From a virus (lineage: Duplodnaviria > Heunggongvirae > Uroviricota > Caudoviricetes), in IMG/VR virus record IMGVR_UViG_2880395615_000010: a stretch of 64,000 nucleotides of DNA, one strand, 5' to 3'. The position numbers are program-made. Positions 60,001-63,000 of this stretch are shown in pieces (the first letter of the stretch is position 1; each line of letters starts with the position of its first letter).

Positions 60001-63000
60001 TCACCTTAGCCAGTCGCAGCCAGTCATCGTCTGACAACGGGTTTGCATAGGCGTCACCCTGACCGTTATAAACCCACAGGGTGGTACCGGCACCTTTTAC
60101 CGGCGCCAGGGGATTTGGTGTTGCCATATCGTCCTCACATCTCGTATGTAATGGAATAAGTCAGATCTGCAGAACTCCACAATGCCATATCGTCATCACG
60201 ACGATAGTCATAGCCCTGCGTAACCATCGTGGTAATCATGCCTGCCAGTGCAGGGATCACCGCCATCGCCGGGTAAATCCGGCTTTCCATCCACTGATCA
60301 AGCTCTGAATCCGGTACCTGTGCCGGTAAAAACACCTCAATATGCAGTGTGGCCCGCCAGGTATCTGCATCCAGCTCTTCACCGGTATACTCTGCATCCG
60401 TCAGATAAACCGCGACCGCGGGAAAATCCTCTTCGTCAAAAACAACGGGGCGACCATCAAACAGCGTCGCCCCGTGTTCATGCAGCTCCAGTGCATCCAG
60501 CACTGCAGCACGGATATCAGTATGTTTCATCGTTTTATTGCAATCCTCAGTTGTTGTTTCAGCGCGGATGCCAGTTCTTTAGGCAGGCGTTCACGCCGGA
60601 TACGGTCAACATTCTCATCAAATGCCTGTTTCAGTAGGGCCGCCATCGGGATTTTCACCACATCAATGGGGTAACGGTTTTTCCCGGCCACACGCTGCAT
60701 GACATGCCAGCGACCATTTTTTAATCGCTGAATAAATGCCCGCTGATACCGATGCTGACCGGCTTTGAGTATGCTGTTCGGGCGACGCCCCGGCATCCTG
60801 ATCCCCAGCTTAATCACAGGGAGATCACCGCGGTTAACGATAATTCTGGCATTCGGATTTCTGACCGTCGCCCGTTTCAGTCTGGACCGTTCCTTAACCA
60901 GTTTCCGGCGAACCTTTGTCTCCCGGGCAACCTGTGATGAAGACTGATTAATCGCCGTTGTGGCCACGCGGTTAATGGCCATTGCTGAAGCCGCCGGAAT
61001 GGCGTTTTTACGAACCCGGCTCAGATTGTCAATCGCCTGATCAAGCCCTTTTATCGCCATAATTTCACCCTGCGTTTATCGTCGCCGGTTAACTGCGGGT
61101 GGTTGACCACGGTTGAGCCAGAGATAACAGCTGCCCCCGTCATCCGGAGAAACACGATCCACCCAGAATATCTCACCATTAATGGTCAGCGTGTCACCAC
61201 GCCGCACGGCACGAACCGTATCCGTCCGCACAAATAATGACGGGCTGCTTCCTTCAATACGGACCCCGCCACCGGCAAACCCCAGCGACTCCGGATCGTC
61301 AAAAACCCCCTGAACTTCGCTGCCACACTGTGCCCCCGAGGTGAACTGCGCACAGAGCCCCATCACTTCAACAATCGTGCTGTCCACCCCGGCGAGGGCA
61401 GCATCAAAGGCATTCTGAAAATCACGCATGCTCAGCCGTTCCGTGCTGTATCATGGCTGTCGCCAGTGGTGATGGCACCAGAACACGCATGCCCCGGTAC
61501 GTCAGTTCAACGGGACGGCCTGTCTCCGGGCAATACCCCATCACATGCAGGCATTTCCGCACACGGACCGCTTTAACATCATCCGTAGCATCAGTGTTGT
61601 GCAACTGCTCACCATCGTCTGTGTGATTTTGCTCAGGCCCGCTCTCATCACCAGGCATAATGCCCTCCCGGGAAGCAGCAAGCTCCTCTTCCCACTCAGA
61701 CACACGTTGCGCAATATCCGCAGCACTCCCCGACATATCCGCCTCGCGCCCCAGCAGGCCAGCCAGTTGACGAAGACGTTTCTGATTTTCTTCTTTTGTT
61801 GCCATATCAGCCCCCTGTGAAAAAAGACACGGGGGCATTTCGCCCCCGCTCACGGATTATTTCACCTGCACCACCACAAACTCATCCGGATCCGGCAGCA
61901 CCATCAGCGGTGCGGACTGCGTCATGGTAAATTCACGGGCCGGATCGCCCACGGTCAGCCAGTGTTTCGGGTAACGGGAAGAAGCCACCACACCTTCGGA
62001 CAACGCCTGCGCATCCTGAATGGCACCGTAACAACGGATCCCATCTGCAGCCGTATTTCCCAGGACCAGCGTGCCCTCCGGCAGATAACGTTTTTCGGTA
62101 CCGTCCTCTGCCACATAAGACGTTTTCGCCACCACAATGGCCAGATCGCCGTAATACCCTTTGAAAGACACCACCGCCCCCAGGTCTTTCACTGCCGTTT
62201 CGAGCTGTGAATTTGAGCCGCGACGGGTATCCAGTTTTTCGCGGAACAGCTTAAAACCATTCAGCAGACGCCAGACAGTACCGTCCATAATGGCAATATT
62301 CACAAGACCGCTGGCCTGATCGCAGTAGAGGTCAATATCATGCGTCGGATCAAACGTATCACGGTCCTGCTCAGACCATTTTTTACCGTCGGCCTGCTCA
62401 ATGTTATTTCCTTCAGAGCGTCCAAAATCCACCTCGACAGTATCAAACTGATCCCCTTCCATGGTGTATTTGCCATACAGCACGGCATTCACCGCCTGCA
62501 TTTCTTCCACCTGGACAATGGCATGCTCTTCCTGTTTGAGGTTATCGGTGATGATACGCAGACGACGGTAGGCCGGGTCGTTCAGTTGAGCCGGATCTTC
62601 ACCGGGAAGACGCTCAACCGCCTGCTGGTAATTAAATTCGTGTTTCGGCTTGACGTAGCCCGGACGTAACACGCGGTTTCACCACCGCGATGACGCAGCA
62701 CTTTTCCTTCAACAACCGGGGAGACATAGGCCGCCACCGGCGTTTTTCCGGTAATTTTGTCCAGCATCACCTCTTCGGTATGGAAATTCACCGTACGGCG
62801 GAAAAACAGCTCCAGAAACAGCGCACGAAATTTCACTTTTTGTTCGGTATAACCGAGTAACTGGCGGGTCGTAAACAATCCCATAAATCAGTTCCTTTCA
62901 TTCAGAAATCAGTCAGGCCACCGCGGTGGCCTGATAACGTGTTACGGCAGCGCCGCGTGACTCAGGGCACTGCCGGCAAAGGCATTTGCCTTTTTGTGTT

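Follow-up and report, generated by a model that had tools for sequence, protein, structure and literature searches.

The analysed window, 64,000 nt in length, is Escherichia coli sequence in which two lambdoid prophages lie in direct tandem. Prophage A extends from before position 1 to its integrase gene at 43310–44335. Prophage B begins at ~44373 with espJ and the gene for a TccP-like repeat protein, continues through tail and head genes, and runs past the window end at 64000. The features on which the analysis is based are the following:

44373–44448: 76-nt core shared by the two prophages, 3′ part of tRNA-Ser (serU), boundary of the A/B tandem
15843–16871, minus strand: intact paralogous capsid gene E of prophage A, 342 aa, a possible donor in trans or by gene conversion
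61857–62884, minus strand: major capsid gene of prophage B (homologue of lambda gene E and phage 21 gene 7), 1028 nt, frameshifted
62674–62676, minus strand: site of the one-base deletion, c-GG-t on the plus strand where all relatives have c-GGG-t
62582–62884, minus strand: N-terminal fragment ORF, 100 aa, starting at the native ATG, with 70 native and 30 out-of-frame residues and a TGA stop at 62582–62584
61857–62672, minus strand: C-terminal fragment ORF, 271 aa, starting at an internal GTG and equivalent to native residues 72–342
62688–63010: 323-nt stretch with the same sequence in A and B, starting 12 nt from the deletion and spanning the 5′ part of E, the D–E spacer, and the 3′ part of D

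The boundary between the prophages was located from their relatives: those of prophage A match the window up to 44448 and those of prophage B match it from 44373, and a tRNA-Ser is annotated beneath the match to 44373–44448 in DEC5B and others. The junction of the prophage A integrase with espJ of prophage B (43310–44900) was contiguous in none of the 5426 complete RefSeq E. coli genomes. The closest complete genomes were those of O55:H7 strains, namely CB9615 for prophage B (98.9% identity) and DEC5B for prophage A (99.0–99.97%). Judged by its sequence, prophage B belongs to the CP-933U/Sp14 type of lambdoid prophages; it occupies serU, and its cargo includes espJ and a tccP-like gene.

Both prophages carry type III effector cargo at their ends (44858–46804 and 103–1601). 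In prophage B this cargo consists of espJ and the TccP/EspF-repeat protein, the length of which varies from 288 to 337 aa among relatives; in prophage A it consists of NleG-family genes. Within the side tail-fibre genes, 859 nt (47194–48052 versus 1927–2785) are exactly identical between the two prophages, although the J genes beside them are only ~74% identical at the protein level. This identity suggests a recent exchange between prophages A and B. For the J protein of prophage A, a look-up gave no existing record. The sodC gene (Cu/Zn superoxide dismutase; 52349–53383, plus strand) lies between tail genes I and J of prophage B, and prophage A has no counterpart of it between its I and J. 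Downstream of the Q region, prophage A contains a cluster of three tRNA genes (Arg-tct, Arg-tcg, and Met-cat; 29626–29875), of which the one called Met by ARAGORN is annotated as tRNA-Ile in DEC5B.

The capsid gene of prophage B comprises 1028 nt instead of the expected 1029. The coding strand has lost one C from a CCC run (plus strand, GGG to GG), so that GAA ACC CGC becomes GAA ACC GCG and Thr70 is the final native residue. The affected run of 3 nt is a short homopolymer. The reading frame is broken after codon 70 and meets a stop at codon 101, and the resulting 100-aa and 271-aa ORFs overlap by 91 nt. In a pairwise alignment, the capsid genes of A and B were 96% identical with a single gap at gene nucleotide 209, and no compensating indel was found across the whole gene. 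The prophage B gene thus fits the pattern of a frameshift pseudogene, i.e., a single uncompensated indel relative to intact orthologues, followed by a premature stop. The original prediction had been built on the same comparison, and its observations held when the DNA was read again: positions 62672–62683 read cgcggtttcacc and positions 16658–16669 read cgcgggtttcac, as quoted, an intact 342-aa E was recovered in prophage A, and the gene of prophage B was indeed divided into two overlapping ORFs. The difference between A and B at the deletion site is discrete and not statistical; chance is therefore not at issue, the base call is.

When the missing C was restored, the prophage B gene encoded a 342-aa protein that aligned end to end with lambda gpE (PDB 7VI9; E = 6.7e-135). 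All 1029 nt of the gene in this restored form were the same as in the intact G2583_RS12520 of CB9615, annotated as "major capsid protein" of E. coli O55:H7. Among sequenced phages, the closest DNA matches were the PhiR12 phages (96.4%) and gene 7 of phage 21 (91.5%), and nearly all of these matches span 1029 nt. The gene is flanked by D (62942–63289) and FI (61422–61853), in the same order as in the annotated CB9615 prophage. The Pfam profile Phage_cap_E, which has a curated cut-off of 22.9 bits, aligned to the prophage A protein over profile positions 1–329 with 224.3 bits. In prophage B this match is divided: profile positions 1–66 fall on residues 5–70 of the N-terminal fragment (38.1 bits) and positions 69–329 on the C-terminal fragment (170.7 bits). 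Both fragments exceed the cut-off, yet no continuous ORF encodes the N-arm, E-loop, P-domain, and A-domain together. As written, the E gene of prophage B is thus, by its sequence, a pseudogene of the Phage_cap_E family. Because profile positions 1–66 and 69–329 are placed on separate polypeptides, neither fragment is expected to be a working capsid protein.

The 100-aa N-terminal fragment is not on record as a protein in the public gene index, and the 271-aa C-terminal fragment has one record there (L158; ENA ERZ652090, NODE_9697). L158 is a public metagenome contig; within its positions 1–50, an untrimmed Nextera adapter at the contig start is joined to gene nucleotide 214. The last G of the adapter creates the GTG start codon of the record, and L158 was therefore rejected as a second frameshift allele and considered an artefact. 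Internal re-initiation at the GTG within the prophage B gene seems unlikely to restore function, as the upstream GGTGGTG is only a weak Shine–Dalgarno look-alike and the product would lack the N-arm.

A full-length capsid protein could in principle still be made from the 1028-nt gene by programmed recoding, with the ribosome slipping by −1 near the site or the polymerase stuttering. A −1 shift just after ACC would read CGC GTG TTA and restore the native protein exactly, and lambdoid phages use −1 frameshifting elsewhere, in the synthesis of the G/GT tail chaperone. However, neither an in-phase X XXY YYZ heptamer nor a run of at least 4 nt occurs in the 97-nt interval in which such a shift could rescue the protein. 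A slippery heptamer of this form was absent in every phase from gene nucleotide 207 to 303 (62582–62678). The two-frame layout is not conserved either: every homologue examined has a single-frame gene, and since no relative conserves the deletion allele, it cannot be an evolved recoding signal. Moreover, a lambda particle requires hundreds of capsid subunits, which exceeds what rare spontaneous slippage would supply. Programmed frameshifting and transcriptional slippage were therefore rejected for lack of a slippery site and of a conserved arrangement, and we regard recoding as having practically no chance of being correct.

The distribution of the deletion was examined with an 80-nt probe centred on it, which was found at 2880 places in 1853 complete E. 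coli genomes. None of these 2880 copies carried the deletion allele and none matched the probe without a gap; the best hits reached 98.8%, where the 80 nt of the window faced 81 nt of the record. Exact-match searches with a deletion-specific 24-mer were negative for the contigs of GTDB genomes, of IMG/VR, and of JGI metagenomes, and the intact-allele probe (24-/25-mer), used as a positive control, matched at least 120 viral contigs. All 134 fetched related loci that align across the deletion site have GGG. One IMG/VR contig (L150) is identical to window positions 60931–64000 save for the gap in E, and a relative from a draft genome (L009) differs from the window by 5 substitutions and the E gap over 13,957 nt and encodes an E of 342 aa. 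On these comparisons, the capsid-gene deletion is derived, confined to the window sequence, and unaccompanied by other decay. If real, the lesion would be of very recent origin, as neither the gene nor the surrounding 3 kb contains any other change. The specific deletion allele is new, whereas its kind is already known.

The same privacy can be read in another way, namely that the strain has CCC, that one base was dropped from a short homopolymer during consensus calling or polishing, and that the capsid gene of prophage B is intact. A deletion allele that is a singleton, absent from every collection searched while the intact probe is abundant, is consistent with such an error, and so is a gene that shows no decay other than the missing base. 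Error-prone public assemblies of the same phage family also show a gene split in this manner (e.g., L027). The site, in addition, adjoins the 323-nt exact repeat of prophage A, and the gene is present in up to five copies per genome. This repeat can serve as a substrate for gene conversion, and it is also a place where polishing can mis-assign reads.

Further indications came from the changes that are private to the window, which were counted over the ~31–40 kb where relatives have at least 99.5% identity. In this comparable part, three one-base homopolymer indels (62676, G3 to G2; 38765, A7 to A8; 40565, A4 to A3) stand against two substitutions (35509 and 54257, the latter synonymous with respect to the common G allele). 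Assuming that indels account for about one in ten natural changes, the probability of at least three indels among five changes is ~0.01 by our own calculation. Base-calling errors, more than natural mutations, typically produce an excess of indels over substitutions. However, random errors should land mostly in the ~88% of the DNA that is coding, whereas two of the three private indels are intergenic, one located 36 nt past a stop codon and the other between a Shine–Dalgarno sequence and its ATG. Such placement of the indels at 38765 and 40565 is as expected of real changes filtered by selection. The change at 40565 shortens the spacer between the Shine–Dalgarno sequence and the ATG of a large exonuclease gene (40568–43048).

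Several other observations argue against a consensus error. No gaps were found in prophage A in comparison with four related sequences (L155 over 18,385 nt, L156 over 14,864 nt, L157 over 14,680 nt, and L152 over 9,552 nt), every other visible late gene of both prophages is a full-length ORF, and a run of 3 nt is a weak error hotspot. Taken together, we give a consensus error somewhat less than an even chance. A real young lesion and a single-base assembly error are indistinguishable from the window sequence alone, and the odds between them are near even. For the reading in which a derived, strain-private, and very young lesion truly inactivates the capsid gene of prophage B, we would put the chances at one in two.

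If the deletion is real, the loss of one C would shift the frame after Thr70, and translation would end 30 codons further on. This would detach the N-arm and the beginning of the E-loop from the remainder of the HK97-fold body and leave prophage B without a working capsid subunit of its own. In lambda gpE, the N-arm as well as the E-loop form contacts between subunits and with gpD, which staples the sheet that these parts of neighbouring subunits share (PMC5701804). A real split at residue 70 should therefore abolish capsid assembly. The original prediction that prophage B cannot make its own capsid is strengthened by the division of Phage_cap_E between two fragments and by the lack of a recoding signal, but it hinges on the base call.

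The earlier claim that the rest of the prophage B morphogenesis module is intact stands for the late genes in the window. In prophage B, stf, lom, J, I, K, L, M, H, T, G, V, U, Z, FII, FI, and D are full-length and open, and the C-terminal 224 aa of gene C, the part that lies in the window, are open as well. The claim does not extend to the portal, terminase, and W genes, which lie past position 64000 together with the N-terminal part of C and the whole early region. A real lesion could thus be without further effect, if prophage B was already defective outside the window or in its regulation and the frameshift is just a further step of decay. The portal, terminase, and early genes, which lie outside the window, leave room for such prior defects, and related prophages are partly defective, as exemplified by the frameshifted tail-fibre gene of the CB9615 counterpart. 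For Sp14 of O157 Sakai, several morphogenesis functions were scored as defective, and the prophage did not become packaged (PMC2669165). In contrast, all late genes of prophage B in the window are intact and the DNA around E is identical to that of relatives with intact genes, so the visible part of the prophage has no sign of ongoing decay. We consider prior inactivation of prophage B rather unlikely.

With a real inactivating lesion in B, the adjacent prophage A becomes of interest as a helper or donor. The exact sequence of its E protein is very common in public assemblies. Between A and B, protein identity amounts to 96.2% for E, 97.4% for D, and 98.2% for the visible part of C, and to only 55% for FI. 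The prophage A E protein differs from the restored E protein of prophage B at 13 residues, 11 of which lie within residues 148–184. This region (62330–62445 versus 16316–16431) forms a mosaic patch, the gene being near-identical elsewhere. Because E, D, and C are 96–98% identical between the prophages, rescue in trans or gene conversion is plausible, i.e., prophage A could supply capsid protein to prophage B or repair its E gene. In O157 Sakai, defective prophages are packaged with the functions of co-resident prophages, and prophages recombine together (PMC2669165). The full scenario, in which the deletion is real and prophage B is a capsid-less, helper-dependent element that is packaged in prophage A capsids or regains E by conversion, is nevertheless one that we hold to be very improbable. 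If true, it would show an autonomous lambdoid phage at the start of a shift to a satellite-like lifestyle, and the espJ/tccP effector cargo of prophage B would be mobilised in the head of another phage.

The significance of the deletion depends on the base call. A real lesion would add a very recent case to those in which prophages of the O55:H7/O157:H7 lineage become mutually dependent, and it would be relevant to the continued mobility of the espJ/tccP effector cargo in prophage B. An artefact would be a matter of annotation only, with an intact capsid gene wrongly labelled as a pseudogene. Neither outcome changes the current understanding. The E gene of prophage B may be an ordinary case of the "defective prophage pool" of the O55:H7/O157:H7 lineage or, alternatively, a one-base consensus error.

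With lambda gene E and phage 21 gene 7 (PF03864, HK97 fold), the prophage B gene shares the gene order D-E-FI-FII. In contrast to these genes, its frame is broken past residue 70, so that no family member is encoded by the gene as written. Lambda E amber mutants were rescued by a helper in classical complementation. As proposed for prophage B, a genome without functional E can then be packaged in the capsids of a related phage. In contrast to the rescue of lambda E amber mutants, the helper protein here would, we infer, be a heterologous, 96%-identical protein from the neighbouring prophage.

The closest comparison is with Sp1–Sp18 of EHEC O157:H7 Sakai (Asadulghani et al. 2009, PMC2669165), which are likewise multiple co-resident and highly similar lambdoid prophages. 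Defects in head genes are common in EHEC prophages, and many members of the Sp1–Sp18 pool have inactivated head, tail, or packaging genes (PMC2669165). Prophage B resembles Sp14/CP-933U in its serU site and its espJ/tccP-type cargo. It differs from the Sakai pool in that its defect consists of one private base in an otherwise pristine gene, and in that prophages A and B lie in direct tandem at one att site.
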